In this document: positions 3,487-12,383 of the stretch, piece after piece
Numbering within the stretch: position 1 is the stretch's first letter
Layout of the letters: every line of letters begins with the position of its first letter
Virus genome (UHGV): UHGV-1630673
Origin: a virus
DNA: 12,383 bases
Reading direction: 5' to 3' (one strand)
Notes under the pieces: generated by a model
Database searches by the model: none
What the model was told of the DNA's origin: nothing
The model's input: only the letters and a program-made list of their open reading frames with translations
Position numbers and translations under genes: made by a program

Positions 3487-3512
3487 CCCGCTTTGAGCGG
3501 GTTTTTCTATTT
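3487..3512 (+). terminator. Intrinsic terminator-like hairpin upstream of the major tail gene
   Basis: CCCGC (3487-3491), loop TTTGA, GCGGG (3497-3501), followed by TTTTTCTATTT (3502-3512). It sits between the tail completion gene stop (3468) and the major tail Shine-Dalgarno GGAGA (3515-3519). Confidence 0.5.
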
Positions 3513-3525
3513 ATGGAGACTAAAA

Positions 3526-4017
3526 ATGTCTGTATTAACGCAAGGCACACAGTTCTTTGTTCTGAAATCTGGCGTGGTCAGCGAGGTTGAATGTATCACT
3601 AGCTTCAATCCCGGCGGCAACCCCGCCGATCAGATTGAAGATACCTGCCTGAGTGAACGGGATTCCAGAACCTACAAAAAAGGTCTGAAAACGCCAGCGG
3701 CTGCAACTGTCGGGCTCAATGCTGACCCGACGAACGCCAGCCACATCATGCTACATGGCCTTGCAGAAGCTAATGACCAGGCGTCATTAACTTTTGCCGT
3801 TGGCTGGTCAGATGGCACCAGCGTTCCGACCGTTGCCGCTTCCGGCGATGAAGATGCTGTTGATGGTCTGGTGCTTCCATCTGATCGCACCTGGTTTATT
3901 TTCCAGGGCTATGTTTCCGATTTTCCATTCGATTTTCAGGGCAATGCGGTTGTGACGACCTCTGCCACCATTCAGCGCTCGGGCTCTTCAGTATGGGTTC
4001 CGAAAGCCGCCGCGTAA
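3526..4017 (+). CDS. Major tail (tail tube) protein (163 aa)
   Basis: GGAGA Shine-Dalgarno 6 nt before ATG 3526 (track start 3493 is a TTG inside the terminator). Its position immediately before the chaperone G/GT pair, its size, and motif resemblance to lambda gpV N-domain-like tube proteins ([12 protein letters not shown]..., [10 protein letters not shown]..., [11 protein letters not shown]) support the call. Hairpins flank the gene on both sides. Confidence 0.75.
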
Positions 4018-4060: not shown

Positions 4061-4444
4061 ATGCAGCTTACTCTCGATACGTTAAAAGAAACCGGGGCAT
4101 TCACTGGCCGCCCGGTAGAGAAAGAAATCAAATGGAAAGGTCGTGACGGGCAAGAACATATTGCAACCGTCTTTGTACGTCCTATGGGCTACCACACCAC
4201 TAAAGCTGAACTGCTGGCGTATAACGGCAAATCAGATCCGGTGGCTGGGCGTATTGCCGCCCATATCTGTGATGAGGAAGGCAAGCAAATCTTCACCGAG
4301 GCGGACATTCTCGGAACTGCATCTGAAGACCGTGGTGCACTTGATGGCCCGATTGTTATTGCCTTGCTGACCGTAATTCAGGGAGTCAACGAGCTGGGAA
4401 AGACTACGAACTCACAGGAGAAGACGAGTTCTGGTGTGAGTTAG
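4061..4444 (+). CDS. Tail assembly chaperone (lambda gpG-like), zero-frame product (127 aa)
   Basis: AGGAG Shine-Dalgarno 4051-4055 and ATG 4061. Position between major tail and tape measure genes. Contains an in-frame slippery heptamer near its 3' end; stop TAG 4442-4444. Confidence 0.8.
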   Translation: MQLTLDTLKETGAFTGRPVEKEIKWKGRDGQEHIATVFVRPMGYHTTKAELLAYNGKSDPVAGRIAAHICDEEGKQIFTEADILGTASEDRGALDGPIVIALLTVIQGVNELGKTTNSQEKTSSGVS

Positions 4445-4710
4445 TCATGAACGGCATTGGCGGGAGAACGATCGAGGAGGCTCAGGAGCGAATGAGCCTC
4501 CGTGAGTTTCAGATATGGGTAAAGTACCGCAATAAGTATGGTCAGCTTAACAACATGATGCGAACCGAGTGGGGGGCCTCGATGGTCGCTTCTGTTCTGG
4601 CGAACATCAATAAGGCGAAGAACACGCCTACTTATAAGGTCAGTGACTTTGCGCCCCATATCAATGAATCCCCTTTGTCGCTTCAAGATGCCATGAAAAA
4701 TTGGCACTGA
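4061..4710 (+). CDS. Tail assembly chaperone G-T fusion made by -1 frameshift at 4396-4402 (predicted ~216 aa)
   Basis: The -1 frame downstream of the slip site encodes DYELTGEDEFWCELVMNGIGGRTIEEAQERMSLREFQIWVKYRNKYGQL...ASVLANINKAK..., resembling the lambda gpT-like domain pattern. The T-frame ATG at 4447 has no Shine-Dalgarno, consistent with expression only as a fusion. Confidence 0.75.
4396..4402 (+). other. Programmed -1 ribosomal frameshift slippery heptamer G GGA AAG
   Basis: GGGAAAG at 4396-4402 lies in the G reading frame as G|GGA|AAG (codons 113-114 = Gly-Lys), the same heptamer and phasing as the phage lambda G/GT shift site. The -1 frame is open from 4402 to TGA 4708-4710, with no stop across the junction. 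Confidence 0.8.
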
Positions 4711-4773
4711 TAACTGTTAAATGCAGTGCAGGATCACTATCATCAGTAAACTAATAACTACTGGGATAGGGAT

Positions 4774-5151
4774 ATGAAAAAGTTAATTTTCGCTTTAGTA
4801 CTTGGCGCATCCGCTTTAACAATTACTGGCTGCGCCCCAACAGTCCAGAAAATCGACTACAACCAGAAATCTATGCTTCTATCTCTTGGGATGAGCAAAA
4901 ACGATGTTATGCAGATTATGGGATCGCCTAGAAGGACTGATGTTAACCCAGAGCGCGAACGCTGGATTTATTGGAATAAGTCTCTATACGGCTACACTAT
5001 TATCGATAACGAACAATTAGCTAATGATCGACTAGTTGTTACGTTTGTAAGCGGGAAAGTGGCTAAGTGGGGCCAACAAACATTGGCTGATGATGTCATG
5101 GAATCATCACAAAAAACCGCCCAAGCTTATGCCGAGGCACTTAAAAAATAG
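4774..5151 (+). CDS. Moron: predicted outer-membrane lipoprotein with BamE (SmpA/OmlA)-like motif pattern (125 aa)
   Basis: N-terminus MKKLIFALVLGASALTITGC is a signal peptide with lipobox ITG|C; residue +2 is Ala, so outer-membrane sorting is predicted. Mature part LSLGMSKNDVMQIMGSPRR...ERWIYWNK...LVVTFVSGKVAKW follows the BamE-like pattern (GM[ST]..V...G[ST]P...W.Y...[LV]TF..GK[LV]). The gene is clearly AT-rich relative to the head genes and is followed by a strong intrinsic terminator. Confidence 0.8.
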   Translation: MKKLIFALVLGASALTITGCAPTVQKIDYNQKSMLLSLGMSKNDVMQIMGSPRRTDVNPERERWIYWNKSLYGYTIIDNEQLANDRLVVTFVSGKVAKWGQQTLADDVMESSQKTAQAYAEALKK

Positions 5152-5172
5152 TCGCTTAAATTAAATTATGAA

Positions 5173-5195
5173 CCTCGCCTCGGCGGGGTTTTTTT
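5173..5195 (+). terminator. Intrinsic terminator after the lipoprotein moron
   Basis: CCTCG (5173-5177) pairs with CGGGG (5184-5188) (5 bp including one G-U pair, 6-nt loop), followed by seven T residues (5189-5195). Confidence 0.6.
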
Positions 5196-5213
5196 ATGCC
5201 TGGAGAAAACTTA

Positions 5214-7754
5214 ATGGCTGGAAAATCCCTTGGTACATTAACAATTGACCTGATAGCAAAAGTAGGCGGATTTGTTCAGGGGATGGATAAGGCTGAAAGG
5301 TCGTCCCAAAAATGGCGCGATCAGGTAAAAAAAGACGCTAAAGAGGTTGGGGCATCCCTGGCTGCTATTGGCGTAGCAGCAGCTACTGCTGCCGTTGGAA
5401 TTGGCATTGCTGGTCTGGCGATTGTAAAAAACACCGCTCAGCAGGTAACTGAGGCTGACAGGTGGGCAAAATCATTAAAAATGTCCACTCAAGATTTATT
5501 ATCCTGGCAATACGCAGCTGAACAAGCCGGTTTAACTGGCGATAATATTGCAGATATTTTTAAAGATATTAACGATAAAGTCGGCGATGCGGTTCTGAAC
5601 AAATCAGGTGAGGCTGCTCAGGCACTGGATACTCTCGGGCTTTCAGCTCAGAAGTTGGCCCAGCAATCCCCTGACAAGCAACTGATGGCTATCAGTGGAG
5701 CATTACAGAAAATCCCCTCTCAGGCCGGGAAAACCAATATCCTCGAAAGTCTGGGTAATGACCTGTCAAAAATGTTGCCGTTGTTCGATAACAATAACGA
5801 GAAATTGAAGCAATTTATCCAGTTGTCAAAAGATTTTGGTGTCGCACCTCCCCAGGAAGATATTGATAATCTGGTTAAAGTTAATCAGTTCTTTCAGGAT
5901 ATCGAGACCAGCGCGCGCGGCATGAGGATGGAAATTGCATCAGGTCTAGCAAAAATTGATCTGTCACCTTTGCAGGATGGGCTGGATGATATTCGAGACG
6001 TATTTACTGATCCTGCTGTTCTTCAGGGTATTTCGGACCTTGTAGGTGAGGCAATCAGTCTTGCAGGAGTGGTTGGCCGAATAGCTGGTGGTTTGGGAGC
6101 TATCGCATCCTATACACGCTCTCGCGTTGGTGCCGTATCAGGGAATTACGATGCTTCCGATCTAAACGACGTAGAACAGCGTATTGAATTCCTGAACAAG
6201 AGAGGTAACCAGAGTAAGGAACAAAAAGAAGAGTTAGATTTTTTAAACAAGCGCCGTGATTTTTTGCAAGCAATCAAAGGATCGATACTCACCCCAGAAG
6301 AATCACAAAGGGCCGCGAAGGGGATGCAGTCCTTGCTTTCTGACATGGACATAGAGCCGAACACCACTGATAATTATAATCTTGGTAAAGATGAATCGAA
6401 CCAGAAGCAAACTGCTAAGAAAAACCCAACTGATAACGCATTCAAAAGTAGATTACTAGACTTACAGAAACAAGCTGCACTTATTGAAACTACTGGTAAA
6501 AAAACAGCTGAAGTTACAGAGCTTGAAAAAATAAATTTTGATATTGCCAGTGGGAACCTGAAAAAATTATCTGAGGATCAAAAAGAACAGCTTCGTATTG
6601 CTGCAAAAACACTTGACTCTAAAAAAGAAGAACTGCGACTTAACCAAGAGAATGCAAAGGTTGCAGAATATATTTCCGGTTTAACAAGGCAAAACAAGCT
6701 TGTCCGACAGGGATATGATAACGAAATTATGGGTCTTTCTTTGGGAAGTAAGGACCGTGGCAGAATGCGAGAGTTAAATGGCATTCAGCAGGATTTCGAA
6801 TCGAGACAAGAGGAACTTTTAAATCAACTTCAGTCTGGTGATATTGATAATAGTTTATATGATAAAAAGAAAGAGGCGTTAAAGGATGCACTTAAAGAAC
6901 GCTTGCAAATACAGGAAAGTTATTATCAGGAGTCAGATGATTTACAAAGTGATTGGCAATCTGGCATCTCAAGTTCATTAGCTGACTTTGCTGACATTTC
7001 TAGTGATTACTACCAGCAAGCAGCTAATGCGATGACATCGATACTGGGTTCAGCTACTGATTCCATCTCTGAGCATTTATATAATGTTATCGATGGTACC
7101 GAGTCGATGGGAGAAGCTATAAAAGGTATTTTTGCAGATCTTGGTGAATCTGTGATTCAAGCTCTTGTCGATATGGCTGCTCAATGGATTGTGTACCAGG
7201 GTGTCCAAATGCTGGTTAACAAATCAGTACAGGCCTCTGCTATTCCTGCAATGATTGCTAATGCACAGGCTACTGCATTACAGGGTCAACTTGCCGCTTT
7301 TGCTTCAACCGCCGCAATACCAATAGTTGGGCCTGCAATGGCTCCAGCAGCCATGGCTGCTGCCGCTGCTGTAACGCAACCAATGGTTGCTGCTATATCC
7401 GTCGCTTCAATATCAGGTATGGCGCATGATGGCATTGACTCAGTACCAAAAACAGGAACCTGGCTCCTACAGGAAGGTGAACGAGTTACCACAGCTAAAA
7501 CCAGTGCAAAGTTGGATGCTACGTTGGATCGGGTAGCGAACCAGTCAACCGGCGGTGGCGCTATCTATGCCCCAAATATCACCATTCCTATCAATGGCAA
7601 TCCTTCAGATGCCACATTGTCGCTGGTACGTAAGGCGGCTGATGAGGGGGCTGAGCGCGGATATCGGAAAGCTGTTAACTCCATAGCCAGCGGGCAGGGT
7701 GATTTGCACAAGGTATTAATGGGGAAAACAAACTCGGGGAGGAAAATTGGCTGA
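5214..7754 (+). CDS. Tail tape measure protein (~846 aa)
   Basis: Longest gene of the tail module, immediately after the chaperone pair. Features: N-terminal hydrophobic segment (LAAIGVAAATAAVGIGIAGLAIV), long charged helical centre, and Ala/Gly-rich hydrophobic C-terminal region (AAFASTAAIPIVGPAMAPAAMAAAAAVTQPMVAAISVAS). GGAG 5202-5205 is 8 nt before ATG 5214; the track start ATG 5196 sits directly on the terminator T-run with no Shine-Dalgarno. Confidence 0.85.
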   Translation: MAGKSLGTLTIDLIAKVGGFVQGMDKAERSSQKWRDQVKKDAKEVGASLAAIGVAAATAAVGIGIAGLAIVKNTAQQVTEADRWAKSLKMSTQDLLSWQYAAEQAGLTGDNIADIFKDINDKVGDAVLNKSGEAAQALDTLGLSAQKLAQQSPDKQLMAISGALQKIPSQAGKTNILESLGNDLSKMLPLFDNNNEKLKQFIQLSKDFGVAPPQEDIDNLVKVNQFFQDIETSARGMRMEIASGLAKIDLSPLQDGLDDIRDVFTDPAVLQGISDLVGEAISLAGVVGRIAGGLGAIASYTRSRVGAVSGNYDASDLNDVEQRIEFLNKRGNQSKEQKEELDFLNKRRDFLQAIKGSILTPEESQRAAKGMQSLLSDMDIEPNTTDNYNLGKDESNQKQTAKKNPTDNAFKSRLLDLQKQAALIETTGKKTAEVTELEKINFDIASGNLKKLSEDQKEQLRIAAKTLDSKKEELRLNQENAKVAEYISGLTRQNKLVRQGYDNEIMGLSLGSKDRGRMRELNGIQQDFESRQEELLNQLQSGDIDNSLYDKKKEALKDALKERLQIQESYYQESDDLQSDWQSGISSSLADFADISSDYYQQAANAMTSILGSATDSISEHLYNVIDGTESMGEAIKGIFADLGESVIQALVDMAAQWIVYQGVQMLVNKSVQASAIPAMIANAQATALQGQLAAFASTAAIPIVGPAMAPAAMAAAAAVTQPMVAAISVASISGMAHDGIDSVPKTGTWLLQEGERVTTAKTSAKLDATLDRVANQSTGGGAIYAPNITIPINGNPSDATLSLVRKAADEGAERGYRKAVNSIASGQGDLHKVLMGKTNSGRKIG

Positions 7755-8233
7755 TGGCTATTACAACACCGATTAATTACCCCTCGGACTATTTGCCAGG
7801 ACCTCTTAAAGATAGTTTTGGTCTTAAGCCAGTTTCGCCGCTAAAAAGCACGCCAATTATTACTGGCAGGCGACGTCAAAGGCGTGCTTATACATCCGTA
7901 CCTACAGAAACAGATATTGCATGGCTCTTTGATGATGCCCAGGCGCAAGCTTTTGAGGCGTGGTACCGGGATGTGCTTTCTGATGGCAGCGCCTGGTTTA
8001 ATATGCCTTTGCTGACGCCTGTCGGACATAAGAATTACGTCTGCAGATTTACAGATATCTATAGGGGGCCGACGCCAGAAGGTGGTTTGTTCTGGCGCTA
8101 TGTTGCGCCCATTGAGTTATGGGAGCGTCCTATGCCTCCTGCTGGGTGGGGGTATTATCCAGAATGGATTACGGGTAGTTCGCTGCTTGATATTGCGCTG
8201 AACAAGGAGTGGCCGAAGCATGACGGTGATTAA
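7754..8233 (+). CDS. Minor tail protein (159 aa), tail-tip/distal tail component by position
   Basis: ATG 7754 overlaps the tape measure stop TGA 7752-7754; GGGGAGG at 7737-7743. First gene after the tape measure, so a tail-tip role is inferred from position. No family recognised. Confidence 0.55.
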   Translation: MAITTPINYPSDYLPGPLKDSFGLKPVSPLKSTPIITGRRRQRRAYTSVPTETDIAWLFDDAQAQAFEAWYRDVLSDGSAWFNMPLLTPVGHKNYVCRFTDIYRGPTPEGGLFWRYVAPIELWERPMPPAGWGYYPEWITGSSLLDIALNKEWPKHDGD

Positions 8234-8702
8234 CCAACTTTATGCCAGCAGCGGTTCTGAAGCCATTATTGAAACACTGCAAATAACTGTCGGAGATACG
8301 ATTCATTATATTTGCAATGGATATGAAGATATCACCGCCACCACAGAAGGAGGGCAAACAGTAACGTTTATAGCGGGAGGAATTGAAATTGCTCTACCAG
8401 CCAGGAACAGTGATGGGACACAAGATTTAAAATTTGTGGTCGGTAACATTGATGGTGAGGTCTCAACAATCATTACGGATGCGTTGGACGACCTGAGTGA
8501 ATCGTCATTGACCTATCGGAATTACACTTCTGATGATCTGTCTGCACCCGCTTCCCCTCCCTATACGCTGAAGCTGAAGCCCGGCTACTGGACGGCTCTT
8601 CAGGCACAGCTTACGGCAGGGTATCTGAATGTACTTGATACGGCCTGGCCCCGTAATCGTTACAAGTTGCCATTCTTCCCTGGACTTCGCTACACGAACT
8701 AA
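8220..8702 (+). CDS. Minor tail protein (160 aa), tail-tip component by position
   Basis: AAGGAG 8204-8209 upstream of ATG 8220; overlaps the upstream gene by 14 nt. Tandem stops TAA TAG (8700-8705) are followed by a terminator. Function inferred from position. Confidence 0.55.
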   Translation: MTVINQLYASSGSEAIIETLQITVGDTIHYICNGYEDITATTEGGQTVTFIAGGIEIALPARNSDGTQDLKFVVGNIDGEVSTIITDALDDLSESSLTYRNYTSDDLSAPASPPYTLKLKPGYWTALQAQLTAGYLNVLDTAWPRNRYKLPFFPGLRYTN

Positions 8703-8726
8703 TAGGTAAGCGAACCAACAAATCTA

Positions 8727-8749
8727 CCTCGCATTGACGAGGTTTTTTT
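8727..8749 (+). terminator. Intrinsic terminator (second copy of a repeated motif)
   Basis: CCTCG (8727-8731), loop CATTGA, CGAGG (8738-8742), then seven T residues (8743-8749). Shares the 16-nt string GGTTTTTTTATGCCTG with the terminator at 5187-5202. Confidence 0.6.
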
Positions 8750-8773
8750 ATGCCTGTGATTTGCGGAGGCGTG

Positions 8774-9154
8774 ATGTTCAAACAGGAAAAATATGAATCC
8801 GTTGTCTGGCTGAAAGGTGGTCGTGATTATCCAAATCTCGACTGCTTCGGCCTTATCAATGAAGTTCGGCGGGACCTCGGTCTACCCGCCTGGCCGGATT
8901 TTGCAGGAGTGACGAAAGATGATGGTGGTCTCAACCGTGAGGCCAAAAAATTGATGATATCGCTGACCCGTTGTGAGCCCAGCGAAGGGGCTGGGGCTGT
9001 TTGCTATTCCGGGTCCACCGTCACACATGTTGCCGTTGTCGTGCGGATTGGCGATCAGTTGCTTGTTGCAGAGTGCAACCCGCAAACAAACGTGACATTT
9101 CTTCCTCTGTCTCGTTTCAAACGGCGGTTCGTTAAAGTGGAGTTCTGGCAATGA
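8774..9154 (+). CDS. NlpC/P60-like (papain-fold) tail protein, lambda gpK-type peptidase domain (126 aa)
   Basis: Candidate catalytic Cys in NLDCFGL, downstream His in THVAVVV, and a polar residue ~17 aa later (AECN), spaced as in NlpC/P60 domains. Position before the host-specificity gene fits. Start is ambiguous: ATG 8750 has no Shine-Dalgarno, while ATG 8774 is 4 nt after GGAGG (8765-8769). Stop overlaps the next start (ATGA at 9151-9154). Confidence 0.55.
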   Translation: MFKQEKYESVVWLKGGRDYPNLDCFGLINEVRRDLGLPAWPDFAGVTKDDGGLNREAKKLMISLTRCEPSEGAGAVCYSGSTVTHVAVVVRIGDQLLVAECNPQTNVTFLPLSRFKRRFVKVEFWQ

Positions 9155-12100
9155 CCATCAGATTTTACCCGTCCCGCCTGCCTGGTGAGCCGCTGGAAAC
9201 CCACGAACATGGCGCGATGTCCTTTCATGAATGGATGGTAAAGAATGTAAAAGAGTATCGGGAGCAGGAAAAACATCCGATTGCGGTTGAAGTGGGGGGC
9301 ATTAACGTTCCTCCTCATGAGTGGCCACTTTGCTTTATCAAACCTGAAAGTGATGTTCGAATTTATCCGGTCCCCTTCGCAACGGCTGCTGCCGTTGCAG
9401 CATGGGCGGCGCTGGCGATTGCTGCTGCCTCAGCTGTTTATGTTTTGATCACAATGTCCAATATGGACAAAGGCGGATACTCTTCATCGAGCGGCACTGG
9501 TCTTGATTTAAATCCGGCAAAAGCCAATACCGCAAAATTGGGTGACCCCATCCGGGAATTATTCGGGCGCTATCGTGTATACCCTGATTATGTTGTGCAA
9601 CCGGTCACTCGCTTTGACCCGAACGACCCGACGATCATGCGTGTGGAAATGCTCCTTTGCGTGAGTGTTGGCAATGTCGCGTTCACAAATGGTGATATTC
9701 GTGTCGGCGAGACTCCAACCACAGCGCTTGGGGAGTCGTTCTCCCATGATGTTTACCCACCAGGCTCTGATGTGTCGGCAGATCGTCGCAGTGAAAACTG
9801 GTACAACTCGACTGAAGTGGGCGGTACGTCAAGCGGGACGGGCCTTGATATGGCTCAAACCTCTCCTGACTCAACGGACATCACCGCTGACAGTATGACT
9901 GTTTCCGGTGCATCGGTGACATTTAACGGATTAGACGACGATAACGATGATGACGATGAAGGGAATGCGTTGCCAGAATCGTGGGTGACGGGAACTATTG
10001 TAACTATCGTTGCGCCAACCAATTATCTGGTTTCAACCTCATCGGGTTATAGCGTTCTTACCAGCGATACGCTGGCGGAAATTAATCCAGCCGCCGGAAT
10101 GCCAGTCACGCTGGAGATTAACGGTGCAGAATATGACCTGGTGATCGCAACGTATACCCCAAAACAGGATGCGGTTCCTGGTGTCGGGGGAGGTGCTGCT
10201 GCTGTACGTGGAAATGCTGCACCGACAACCTATGATTTTTCCACATCGGGACAGACATTTGATTTAACCTGGAATGCAACTTCCTTCACCGTCTCCCTTG
10301 TAGCTGATTATCTGAATATGTCAGGACTTCTGGCGGCAATTAATGAAGGGCTGACGGGGTCGGGGCTGGTTGCTCAGGATGATGGCGGTGTTGTGCGGAT
10401 AGTTGAAATATCCAGCCCGTGGAGGGGCGGAAATATCACATCATCAGCACTCCCCGTTTCTGTTTTTGGTGACACACCGGAATTTACTGCTGGTACGCCC
10501 TCAAGTGGTGGAAGTCCTGCGATCACGGCTAATGTTACGCTCGCTTATGGTCGCGCAACTGGTGCGGCATTCTCGGGAATTCCGGAGGGGACACAGCGGC
10601 TTTCTCTGGCTCATCGTGGTAACGAATATCGGATTGCTGATGCTGACGGTACTACAGCAACGGTTCAGCGTGTGGTCGAAGGTGTTGTTGATCCTTCTTG
10701 GTTGGGGTTTGCCCCGCGCACGATGATCGATTATCAGGCTACGGGTATTAACGACAATAATACCTGGATGGGGCCGTTTCTTGTTTGTCCTGAAAATGAA
10801 GTTGTGGACGCCTTCGAGGTGAACTTCTCATTTCCTTCCGGGATTTGCGGTTTTGACAACAAAGGCAAAAAGCGTATCCGCCATTGTGAATGGGAAATTC
10901 AGTACCGCGTTTATGGTTCTGGTGCCGGATGGGCCAGCCGCGAAGGCGTTTATGCTCTGCAAAACGTCAATGGCCTGGGATTTACTGAACGGTTTGATCT
11001 CAGCACTCCCGGCCTTGTCGAAGTTCGTTGTCGCCGCCGGAACGAGCAAGGGAGTAACAATGCTCGTGATTCTATGTACTGGCAGGCATTGAGAGGGCGG
11101 TTACTTTCACGGCCTGCATCTTATCCTGGCGTTACGCTTCTGGCGGTGACGGTGGAAACCGGCGGGAAGCTGGCCGCTCAGTCTGATCGGCGAGTGAACG
11201 TTGTCGCAACGCGAATTTATGACAAAGGTGCGGCAAGAAGTATTTCAGGTGCGTTGTATCATGTTGGTGGTTCGCTTGGACTTGATATGGATACTGAGGC
11301 CATTGATCTTCTGGAAACCACGGTATGGACACCCAATGGTGAGTATTTCGATTTCGCTGCTGGTGACAGTATCTCTGCCCTTGAAATGCTTCAGAAGATT
11401 GCTAATGCCGGGAGGTCCTATTTCCTGCTGAGTGATGGACTGGCGTCTGTAGGGCGGGAAGGGGTTAAGCCGTGGACCGGGGTTATCAGCCCGCATGAAA
11501 TGACCGAAGAGCTGCAAACAGCCTTCACCCCGCCATCTGATGATGATTATGATGGCGTTGATGTCACTTATATCAACGGTACAACGTGGGCAGAAGAGAC
11601 GGTGCAATGCCGTATGCCTGGCAACCCTACACCTTTTAAAGTTGAAAACTATGAACTTGACGGCGTTCTTAACCGAGATCACGCCTATCAGATAGGCATG
11701 CGCAGGCTGATGAAATATCAAAAGCAGCGGCGTAACTATTCAACGACGACCGAGCTTGACGCGCTTTGTTATAATTACGGGGATCGTATTTTGCTGACGG
11801 ATGATATCCCTGGAAATAAAACGATTAGTTGTCTTGTTGAAGCAATGAACACAGCAGACGGGGTCACAACGTTCACGGTTACGGAGCCGCTCGACTGGTC
11901 ATTTGAAAATCCACGGGCAATCCTGCGTTATCAGGATGGCTCGGCTTCCGCTTTGCTGGTGGCCTCAGCGGTTGGTGACTATCAGCTGTCTGTTCCATAT
12001 GACTCAGAGTTTGACGGGATCATATTAAATGATCCGTATATCGAACCGCCGCGTCTGATTTTCTGCACATCTTCACGCAGGACATACGACGCGATTATAG

Positions 12101-12207
12101 AAGAGATTGCGCCTCAATCCGATGGTACATGCCAGGTGACTGCCCGTCAGTACCGTGATGATTTCTACGCCTACGACGACGCCACATACCCCGGCGACGT
12201 CGCTTAA
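9151..12207 (+). CDS. Host-specificity / tail tip central fibre protein (gpJ-like), 1018 aa, with gpI-like N-terminal region
   Basis: Largest ORF at the distal end of the tail module; GGAG 9139-9142 is 8 nt before ATG 9151. N-terminal ~190 aa contain an Ala-rich hydrophobic segment (FATAAAVAAWAALAIAAASAVYVLI) followed by LGDPIRELFGRYRVYP, resembling the lambda gpI pattern. The remainder has the size and character of gpJ-like proteins. Acidic tract LDDDNDDDDEG at ~9931-9963. Confidence 0.8.
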   Translation: MTIRFYPSRLPGEPLETHEHGAMSFHEWMVKNVKEYREQEKHPIAVEVGGINVPPHEWPLCFIKPESDVRIYPVPFATAAAVAAWAALAIAAASAVYVLITMSNMDKGGYSSSSGTGLDLNPAKANTAKLGDPIRELFGRYRVYPDYVVQPVTRFDPNDPTIMRVEMLLCVSVGNVAFTNGDIRVGETPTTALGESFSHDVYPPGSDVSADRRSENWYNSTEVGGTSSGTGLDMAQTSPDSTDITADSMTVSGASVTFNGLDDDNDDDDEGNALPESWVTGTIVTIVAPTNYLVSTSSGYSVLTSDTLAEINPAAGMPVTLEINGAEYDLVIATYTPKQDAVPGVGGGAAAVRGNAAPTTYDFSTSGQTFDLTWNATSFTVSLVADYLNMSGLLAAINEGLTGSGLVAQDDGGVVRIVEISSPWRGGNITSSALPVSVFGDTPEFTAGTPSSGGSPAITANVTLAYGRATGAAFSGIPEGTQRLSLAHRGNEYRIADADGTTATVQRVVEGVVDPSWLGFAPRTMIDYQATGINDNNTWMGPFLVCPENEVVDAFEVNFSFPSGICGFDNKGKKRIRHCEWEIQYRVYGSGAGWASREGVYALQNVNGLGFTERFDLSTPGLVEVRCRRRNEQGSNNARDSMYWQALRGRLLSRPASYPGVTLLAVTVETGGKLAAQSDRRVNVVATRIYDKGAARSISGALYHVGGSLGLDMDTEAIDLLETTVWTPNGEYFDFAAGDSISALEMLQKIANAGRSYFLLSDGLASVGREGVKPWTGVISPHEMTEELQTAFTPPSDDDYDGVDVTYINGTTWAEETVQCRMPGNPTPFKVENYELDGVLNRDHAYQIGMRRLMKYQKQRRNYSTTTELDALCYNYGDRILLTDDIPGNKTISCLVEAMNTADGVTTFTVTEPLDWSFENPRAILRYQDGSASALLVASAVGDYQLSVPYDSEFDGIILNDPYIEPPRLIFCTSSRRTYDAIIEEIAPQSDGTCQVTARQYRDDFYAYDDATYPGDVA

Positions 12208-12238
12208 TACCCCATAAAAACCCCTTATTAACTCTTTT

Positions 12239-12272
12239 CGCACAAACCCTCGTTTGCGCGAAGCCTCTTTTT
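12239..12272 (+). promoter_or_regulatory. Imperfect hairpin with downstream T-run between the host-specificity gene and the next gene
   Basis: CGCACAAAC (12239-12247) pairs with GTTTGCGCG (12252-12260) with one mismatch, loop CCTC; a TTTTT run (12268-12272) lies 7 nt downstream. Not a canonical terminator geometry. Confidence 0.3.
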
Positions 12273-12284
12273 GGAGCAAAAAAC

Positions 12285-12383
12285 ATGGCTGCAGATCTGA
12301 ATCCGCCGCTGGGTACGACGACGCCTGAAATCTTTTTAGATAACGTTAAGCGGGCCGATCGGTTAGTGAACGGGCCGGAGGAA
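12285..12383 (+). CDS. 5' end of next gene (3'-truncated by window edge); unknown, possibly tail fibre or accessory protein by position
   Basis: GGAG 12273-12276 is 8 nt before ATG 12285; open frame MAADLNPPLGTTTPEIFLDNVKRADRLVNGPEE runs to the window end. Only 33 codons are visible, so function cannot be assigned. Confidence 0.45.
   Translation, partial: MAADLNPPLGTTTPEIFLDNVKRADRLVNGPEE

Follow-up and report, generated by a model that had tools for sequence, protein, structure and literature searches.

The 12,383-nt stretch of DNA analyzed here at its full length (the window, from UHGV virus genome UHGV-1630673) holds the head-to-tail structural genes of a Klebsiella prophage of the siphovirus type, and the plus-strand gene at its positions 9151–12207 is the subject of this work. 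At a probability that we put at about 0.85, its product is the main trimeric hub protein of the tail tip, a single chain that unites equivalents of lambda gpI and of the hub-forming N-terminal half of gpJ. The predicted architecture of the protein, in window positions and amino acid (aa) residues, is as follows:

9151–12207, plus strand: gene of the tail-tip hub protein (1018 aa), composed of a probable gpI-like module and a gpJ/TipJ-like core ('baseplate hub 2' type).
9151–9375, plus strand (aa 1–75): predicted ubiquitin-like (Ubl) ThiS/MoaD-type beta-grasp domain, probable counterpart of the lambda gpI N-domain (Pfam Lambda_tail_I).
9376–9450, plus strand (aa 76–100): Ala-rich hydrophobic helix, probably corresponding to H1/H2, the hydrophobic region of gpI.
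9451–9510, plus strand (aa 101–120): Ser/Gly-rich low-confidence linker, with a predicted local distance difference test (pLDDT) score of 41–50 in the full-length model.
9511–9591, plus strand (aa 121–147): conserved motif KANTAKLGDPIRELFGRYRVYPDY, which aligns with the gpI C-terminal motif N-x-x-AQGNxxPVxYGExRVG.
9601–10791, plus strand (aa 151–547): beta-rich extension that separates the gpI-like module from the hub core, confidently folded in the model.
10792–12171, plus strand (aa 548–1007): gpJ/TipJ hub core, delimited by NCBIfam, Pfam, Foldseek, and occupancy in relatives.

The open reading frame (ORF) runs without interruption from an ATG to the stop codon that these coordinates include, which bears out the first-pass annotation on the existence of a single 1018-aa product. 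Its ATG overlaps by 4 nt the TGA of the upstream gene (ATGA, 9151–9154), with GGAG ~10 nt 5' of it. PHROG 469 ('tail protein') matches the product end to end (aa 1–1017, E=9e-277), a 'host specificity factor TipJ family phage tail protein' of K. michiganensis is 99% identical to it, and the AlphaFold2 model of the full-length chain has a pLDDT of 89.8. An assembly or sequencing artefact, or a recent read-through joining two genes, was considered as the origin of the long ORF and rejected as having virtually no chance of being correct: the 120 closest database homologs, which come from many genomes, are all 1013–1022 aa long, full-length relatives extend to 80 distant representatives, and a homolog forms one chain in the virion (9OCC).

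An exhaustive HMMER search with aa 1–215 collected 420 proteins at E<=1e-3, and the 80 distant full-length representatives (803–1368 aa, 23–67% identity to the query) were gathered in alignment A1. The N-terminal profile of these 80 relatives was compared by hhalign with that of a diverse set of 18 gpI proteins, namely lambda gpI, five enterobacterial homologs, and 12 phage gpI sequences (Yersinia, Ralstonia, Burkholderia, phi80, Aeromonas, HK022, a T1-like phage, Pseudomonas, Edwardsiella, Vibrio, Psychrobacter, and SSU5). The two profiles aligned collinearly, query 2–147 to gpI 16–202, with a probability of 90% and P=1.6e-6, whereas controls with reversed sequence or cross-region pairs gave P values of 0.16–0.33. 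This result supersedes an earlier comparison against a shallow alignment of close gpI homologs (number of effective sequences, Neff, 1.9), which had returned a probability of 29%.

Dissection of the alignment revealed that its parts contribute unequally. The Ubl parts alone were aligned at P=2.6e-6, and aa 1–75 fold in the predicted structure as a ThiS/MoaD-type beta-grasp, a fold shared with the N-domain of gpI (PMC1779556). On the other hand, the parts that follow the hydrophobic region yielded a weak signal on their own (P=1e-3, probability 21%, against the same control values), and the hydrophobic segments alone gave none (P=0.22). The weak C-terminal alignment pairs KANTAKLGDPIRELFGRYRV with the gpI motif NxxAQGNxxPVxYGExRV, and the full-profile alignment likewise places query residues 121–147 opposite gpI 170–202. 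N126 and G139 of the query are invariant across the 80 relatives, and P145 is nearly so. In lambda, this C-terminal motif of gpI forms strands that thread into gpJ. Within the evidence for a gpI-like module, the Ubl domain carries the most weight and the C-terminal motif the least.

The Ala-rich, membrane-like segment that the first-pass annotation had placed near the N-terminus is also real, and both strings that it quoted, FATAAAVAAWAALAIAAASAVYVLI (aa 76–100, nt 9376–9450) and LGDPIRELFGRYRVYP (aa 130–145, nt 9538–9585), occur where it located them. The former has the highest 19-residue hydropathy of the whole protein (Kyte-Doolittle, KD, 2.23) and is embedded in an uncharged stretch of 35 residues, and 54 of the 80 relatives have an equivalent segment with KD >=1.6. 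A helix is predicted at aa 79–103, and this stretch lies opposite gpI 98–157 in the hhalign alignment.

Gene position points in the same direction. The window has no separate I gene, the K-like and J-like genes being the two that overlap by 4 nt, and the gpI-like module occupies the 5' end of the J-like gene, that is, between the K and J functions as in the lambda order K-I-J. The profile of aa 1–225 of the family further matches Sf11 gp14 (9occ_E; E=2.9e-20, 6–204 to 5–194). We therefore interpret aa 1–~150 as a gpI-like module with high confidence, because profile matches coincide with a location right after the K-position gene in the absence of a separate I gene, and the structural methods agree with this assignment. 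In this respect, the fusion of gpI and gpJ proposed by the first-pass annotation gains support from the collinear alignment, the beta-grasp fold, and the gene order.

Several observations weigh against this interpretation. The gpI homology is visible at the profile level only: neither aa 1–100, nor 1–200, nor 1–225 of the window protein retrieved a Pfam or NCBIfam match even at E=10, PF06805 (Lambda_tail_I) included, and BLASTP of aa 1–215 against lambda gpI returned nothing significant. Even by profiles the C-terminal motif alone stays at the 21% given above. Foldseek of the N-terminal model against BFVD mainly found other fused J-like proteins, and a stand-alone tail assembly protein appeared at E=0.84. 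A single hydrophobic helix of ~25 aa is present here versus two helices and ~59 uncharged residues (19-residue KD of 1.78) in gpI. Finally, the Gly that terminates the beta-grasp domain is kept in 57 of the 80 relatives (as Gly-Gly in 22), but the window protein has Ala77 (PFAT) at this place.

An alternative origin was also considered, in which the module is an independently acquired ThiS-like domain with a membrane anchor that resembles gpI by analogy or by membership of a shared superfamily, without any ancestral I-J fusion. In its favour, Pfam searches on the N-termini of the relatives identified ThiS in more cases (19/80, best E=3e-7) than Lambda_tail_I (5/80, best E=6e-3), the hydrophobic parts carry no alignable signal, and the C-terminal motif reaches P=1e-3 at best. 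However, the three elements follow one another in the order of gpI and align collinearly, the module lies precisely where an I gene would be expected, after the K-position gene and ahead of the J core, while the window lacks a separate I gene, and the family profile touches, at the junction of the Ubl and hydrophobic parts, the T1 insertion protein gp34 (9l9p_A; a gpI homolog), if only at E=0.3; Iyer et al. assign such proteins to the TAPI family (PMC1779556). We hence regard an independent acquisition as unlikely, and derivation from gpI remains our preferred explanation of the module.

The N-terminal region is by no means peculiar to the window. It begins within the first few residues (11 at most) in all 80 distant relatives, and a comparison with cultured phages identified it at the head of the large tail protein both in temperate phages of Klebsiella and in the Pseudomonas phages D3 (orf26), phi297, PMG1, JBD44, and PAJU2. 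The full-length match to PHROG 469 tells the same. Judged from these alignments, proteins of a large J-like family normally begin with this module, an outcome that had been named at the outset as refuting a fusion; the two statements are not in conflict, because the whole family is a fusion. Among the matches to the N-terminal 215 aa there are also short proteins (~80–310 aa) of scattered lengths. Most of them are probably contig-end fragments, while some, such as the 209-, 228-, and 254-aa proteins that match residues 1 to ~206–208, could be genuine stand-alone gpI-like genes of this family. Searched with phmmer against PDB sequences, the whole hub protein had no match, and 9OCC was reached by the family profile only. 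Database names are misleading for this locus: in Klebsiella, Raoultella, and Citrobacter genomes as well as in phage records, the hub protein is widely called a 'kinase' and the K-position protein a 'nitrite transporter'.

The gpJ-like part of the protein is confined to its C-terminal half. NCBIfam NF040662 (attach_TipJ_rel) spans aa 548–1007 (E=6e-140, 466.9 bits, cut-off 140), and within this region Pfam recognizes FNIII-A_GpJ (PF24801; aa 549–648, score 35.1, cut-off 27) and Phage-tail_3 (PF13550; aa 798–889, score 23.1, cut-off 23). Occupancy of the hub core is ~1.0 over the 80 diverse relatives. A gpJ-like body starting at about residue 200, as the first-pass annotation had proposed, is not supported. 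Residues 201–548 retrieved nothing from Pfam, even at E=5. The extension contains a poly-Asp linker (aa 262–270, nt 9934–9960) and a lineage-specific, indel-rich insertion (aa ~340–470, nt ~10168–10560), and family occupancy drops to 0.41–0.44 at aa 351–450.

BLASTP of the whole hub protein against gpJ gave nothing significant. We also compared the hub-protein model with the PDB using Foldseek. The best hit was Sf11 gp14 (9occ_E; E=1.2e-43, target-normalized TM-score, TMt, 0.67, over 969 columns), followed by lambda gpJ (8k35_A, E=5.8e-25), lambda gpJ in the open state (8xcg_F, E=1.9e-24), a T1 tail tip chain (9l9p_S, E=5.3e-21), the T5 tail tip chain pb3 (7zhj_b, E=2.9e-8), the JBD30 baseplate (8rk3_b, E=1.3e-7), a Chi tail tip chain (8vjh_A, E=1.3e-6), and RcGTA (6tba_8A, E=1.5e-6).

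The delimitation of the core bears directly on host range. In lambda gpJ, the FNIII-A and Phage-tail_3 domains occupy residues 86–498 and are followed by two Ig domains, a tail-tip fibre domain, and a C-terminal receptor-binding domain (RBD). By contrast, the hub protein ends where the core model ends, and none of the lambda gpJ fibre and RBD domains Ig_J, Ig_J_second, Phage_Tail_Tip, and Ig_GpJ_C (PF24421, PF24489, PF09327, PF12421) had a Pfam match in it. By sequence comparison, its C-terminal third is conserved hub core devoid of a central fibre or receptor-binding domain. The earlier proposal that this third is the receptor-binding region setting host range could draw on the lambda precedent and on the fact that, among close homologs, aa 951–1000 are somewhat less conserved (0.64–0.65 identity to the query) than aa 526–650. 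Nonetheless, variability across the C-terminal third of these homologs is similar to or below that of aa 26–100 and 376–400, the region falls within the TipJ core model at ~100% occupancy, and Jersey-type hubs have been reported to lack a C-terminal antireceptor domain (PMC13243795). Moreover, relatives carry a fibre or spike gene directly downstream, whose N-terminus is also present here:

12285–12383, plus strand: 5' part of the next gene, which runs past the window end; conserved attachment N-terminus of a probable side fibre or tailspike.

Taken together, these findings make a receptor-binding role of the C-terminal third very unlikely. The first 33 residues of the gene starting at 12285 are MAADLNPPLGTTTPEIFLDNVKRADRLVNGPEE, which match the N-terminus of a 612-aa 'SGNH/GDSL hydrolase family protein' encoded by the gene after the hub in Klebsiella phage ST405-OXA48phi1.3. 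By analogy with the tailspikes that follow the hub genes of Sf11 and Jersey, this gene would encode a side fibre or tailspike and is the more likely host-range determinant. Since nothing follows the hub core in the hub protein, host recognition is expected mainly from outside its C-terminal third, and mainly from this fibre/spike gene, with a possible contribution of the variable insert at aa ~340–470.

The 77-bp intergenic region that separates the hub gene from the fibre gene (12208–12284) contains, as read by eye, an inverted repeat at 12238–12260 (TTCGCACAAACCCTCGTTTGCGCGAA) followed by CCTCTTTTT. The repeat has the shape of an intrinsic terminator and is located just 5' of the fibre gene start at 12285.

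Upstream of the hub gene, the window is laid out as a head-to-tail series in which the following genes were assigned:

119–1339: HK97-type capsid protein (Pfam/PHROG assignment).
3493–4017: lambda-like tail tube protein (Pfam/PHROG assignment).
4061–4444, plus strand: tail assembly chaperone, Phage_TAC_13 (Pfam/PHROG assignment).
5196–7754: tape measure protein (Pfam/PHROG assignment).
7754–8233, plus strand: PHROG 384 protein (E=1.4e-52), candidate distal tail protein.
8220–8702, plus strand: DUF1833 protein (Pfam DUF1833, E=8e-36; PHROG 396 minor tail protein).
8750–9154, plus strand: small gene in the gpK position (PHROG 329 'minor tail protein', E=4.9e-12).

The small gene in the K position was listed as a 134-aa ORF; nearly all its homologs measure 126 aa, Met9 is invariant among them, and the true start is probably this Met9, at the ATG at nt 8774. 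The first-pass annotation had described it as a short NlpC/P60-only gene without an MPN domain. The second half of this description held, in that Pfam found no JAB/MPN domain in the 126–134-aa protein, while the first gained little support: the NLPC_P60 profile did not match, the homologs carry no Pfam domain, and the hit to Pfam CHAP (E=0.011, 16.6 bits) is below the cut-off of 26. No variation occurs at D31-C32, H93, or E108 across 120 homologs, and hhalign of the family against the single gpK sequence, itself weak (P=0.06), pairs the Cys and His motifs with the catalytic ones of gpK. These patterns suggest a probable papain-like (NlpC/P60/CHAP) cysteine peptidase without JAB/MPN.

Judging by its size and position, the DUF1833 protein would partner the hub as a short, gpL-like 'baseplate hub 1'. 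Described counterparts of this component are Sf11 gp16 (156 aa) and Jersey gp30, a C-terminally truncated gpL homolog (PMC12724387, PMC13243795). With tblastn, DUF1833 homologs were detected in the fused-hub Pseudomonas phages PAJU2, PS-1, and vB_Pae_SG_WM_Sew_P27, and also in Kagunavirus/K1-type phages. Neither the DUF1833 nor the K-like protein had a useful phmmer match in the PDB, and the 7754–8233 protein matched weakly the Sf11 distal tail protein gp17 (9occ_C; E=0.027, aa 7–112 to 4–111). In Klebsiella phage ST405-OXA48phi1.3, an opposite-strand TIR-domain gene and a small ORF (6319–7197, minus strand) are found between the DUF1833 and K-position genes, where the window has a 47-bp gap only (8703–8749); this insert looks like a defence-type moron within the tail-tip module.

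Further upstream, G+C content falls from ~0.51–0.54 to 0.40–0.45 over window positions ~4500–7500 and returns to ~0.49–0.52 thereafter. The low-G+C stretch, which takes in a BamE-like ORF and the greater part of the tape measure gene, suggests a mosaic origin of this segment. The former is a 125-aa ORF (4774–5151, plus strand) with a BamE domain (Pfam E=1.5e-5; PHROG 18614, unknown function), located after the tail assembly chaperone genes and ahead of the tape measure gene, and may represent a moron of the lipoprotein type within this tail region. Directly after the chaperone gene there is an 87-aa ORF in the -1 frame (4447–4710, plus strand), the layout of the lambda G/GT programmed frameshift; a quick read by eye of 4380–4444 revealed no obvious XXXYYYZ slippery heptamer.

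A role for the fused protein can be proposed from what is known of tail tips. [quoted passage not shown] Once LamB is bound, the hub domains swing outwards and the plug opens, and entry of the hydrophobic helices into the outer membrane has been proposed (PMC11101478, PMC10721106, PMC12617516). A plugging insertion-protein trimer in the tip lumen, in contact with the tape measure C-terminus, is likewise known in T1. By analogy with lambda, T1, and Sf11, three copies of the hub protein would form a cone closing the tail tube, the lumen of which would be plugged by the N-terminal segments of the hub protein itself. Receptor triggering would then swing the hub domains out and open the plug, and the hydrophobic helices would be set free in the direction of the outer membrane, which they might even enter. 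The Ubl domain is likely flexible; the corresponding region is unresolved in both lambda gpI and Sf11 gp14. Fusion as such would fix a 1:1 stoichiometry and tether the two parts permanently.

The 2006 analysis noted that the Ubl domain in tail assembly protein I ends with a conserved Gly, and suggested that a JAB peptidase cleaves at this site (PMC1779556). Such processing is not predicted for the window protein, because Ala77 takes the place of this Gly and a JAB partner is lacking. Since the module is tied to the hub, has one helix only, and lacks both the terminal Gly and a JAB partner, the plug might never be released; the three tethered helices would instead insert in the outer membrane and anchor the open hub as an exit pore, carrying the Ubl domains along. 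We offer this last step tentatively, as a possibility that we rate on the doubtful side. If true, it would explain the 'novel N-terminal domain on a tether' of the Jersey and Sf11 structural work, and the AlphaFold placement of the N-terminal domain in the lumen, which is the site of gpI in lambda, would make sense.

As a discovery, the fusion carries little weight: a 2006 survey already lists it, the structure of a homolog within the virion is available, and a 99%-identical protein is in public databases. The analysis does expose an annotation gap, with no Pfam or NCBIfam model over the gpI-like N-terminal 150 residues, and the link to gpI suggests how the N-terminal domain in hubs of the Jersey and Sf11 types may be understood. 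In these Klebsiella prophages, efforts to engineer host range should aim at the downstream fibre/spike gene, and perhaps at the insert at aa ~340–470, rather than at the C-terminal third of the hub.

Among known systems, Sf11 gp14 is the best structural match and is homologous over the N-terminal 200 aa. This 'baseplate hub 2' (9OCC chain E) is a virion component in three copies, of which residues 81–827 have been modelled and the first 80 are not resolved (PMC12724387). It is 16% identical to the hub protein and, at 828 versus 1018 aa, 190 aa shorter, the extra material here lying mainly at aa ~340–470. The Sf11 genes are ordered as tape measure gp18, distal tail gp17, hub 1 gp16, gp15 (absent from virions), hub 2 gp14, and spike gp13 (PMC12724387). 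A similar N-terminal addition has been reported for gp32 of Salmonella phage Jersey (PMC13243795), and neither structural paper linked the N-terminal module to gpI (PMC12724387, PMC13243795).

Lambda gpI plus gpJ residues ~1–600 share with the hub protein the order of Ubl domain, hydrophobic region, C-terminal motif (putative in the hub protein), and FNIII-A and Phage-tail_3 hub domains. Lambda differs in splitting these elements between two genes, in its two hydrophobic helices, in a gpK that combines Prok-JAB with NLPC_P60 whereas the K-position protein here is devoid of JAB, in a full-length gpL with an Fe-S domain, and in a gpJ that continues into Ig domains, a central fibre, and a LamB-binding domain, none of which exists in the hub protein. 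T5 pb3, which the authors of one lambda study equated with gpL + gpI + gpJ(N) (PMC10721106), is a one-polypeptide hub with a covalent tube-closing plug, as proposed here. Its plug, however, is inserted within HDII and the gpL-like HDI is fused as well, whereas in the hub protein the plug module would be N-terminal and equipped with a Ubl domain, and HDI is presumably separate (DUF1833). Pseudomonas phage D3 orf26 and its relatives in phi297, PMG1, JBD44, and PAJU2 carry the same N-terminal module (~31–33% identity over aa 3–210, E ~1e-20) in a different host genus and at low identity; in several relatives (e.g., Marin and VB_EV13), the upstream gene is annotated as 'peptidoglycan hydrolase'.

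The closest precedent is the survey of Iyer, Burroughs & Aravind 2006 (Genome Biol 7:R60), which found the ThiS/MoaD-like domain in tail assembly protein I and described, in some prophages, the fusion of this protein (Ubl domain, Gly-rich linker, and TAPI-C) to J (PMC1779556). That work took protein I to be absent from the mature tail (PMC1779556), whereas later cryo-EM placed gpI in the virion (PMC11101478, PMC10721106). The neighbours of the TAPI-TAPJ fusions include an NlpC protein almost always without JAB, and the operon also encodes a beta-strand-rich protein 'Z' (PMC1779556). A gpI-J fusion accompanied by an NlpC-only K has thus been already known since 2006, and the window order of DUF1833, small Cys-peptidase-like gene, and fused hub agrees with it in every essential.

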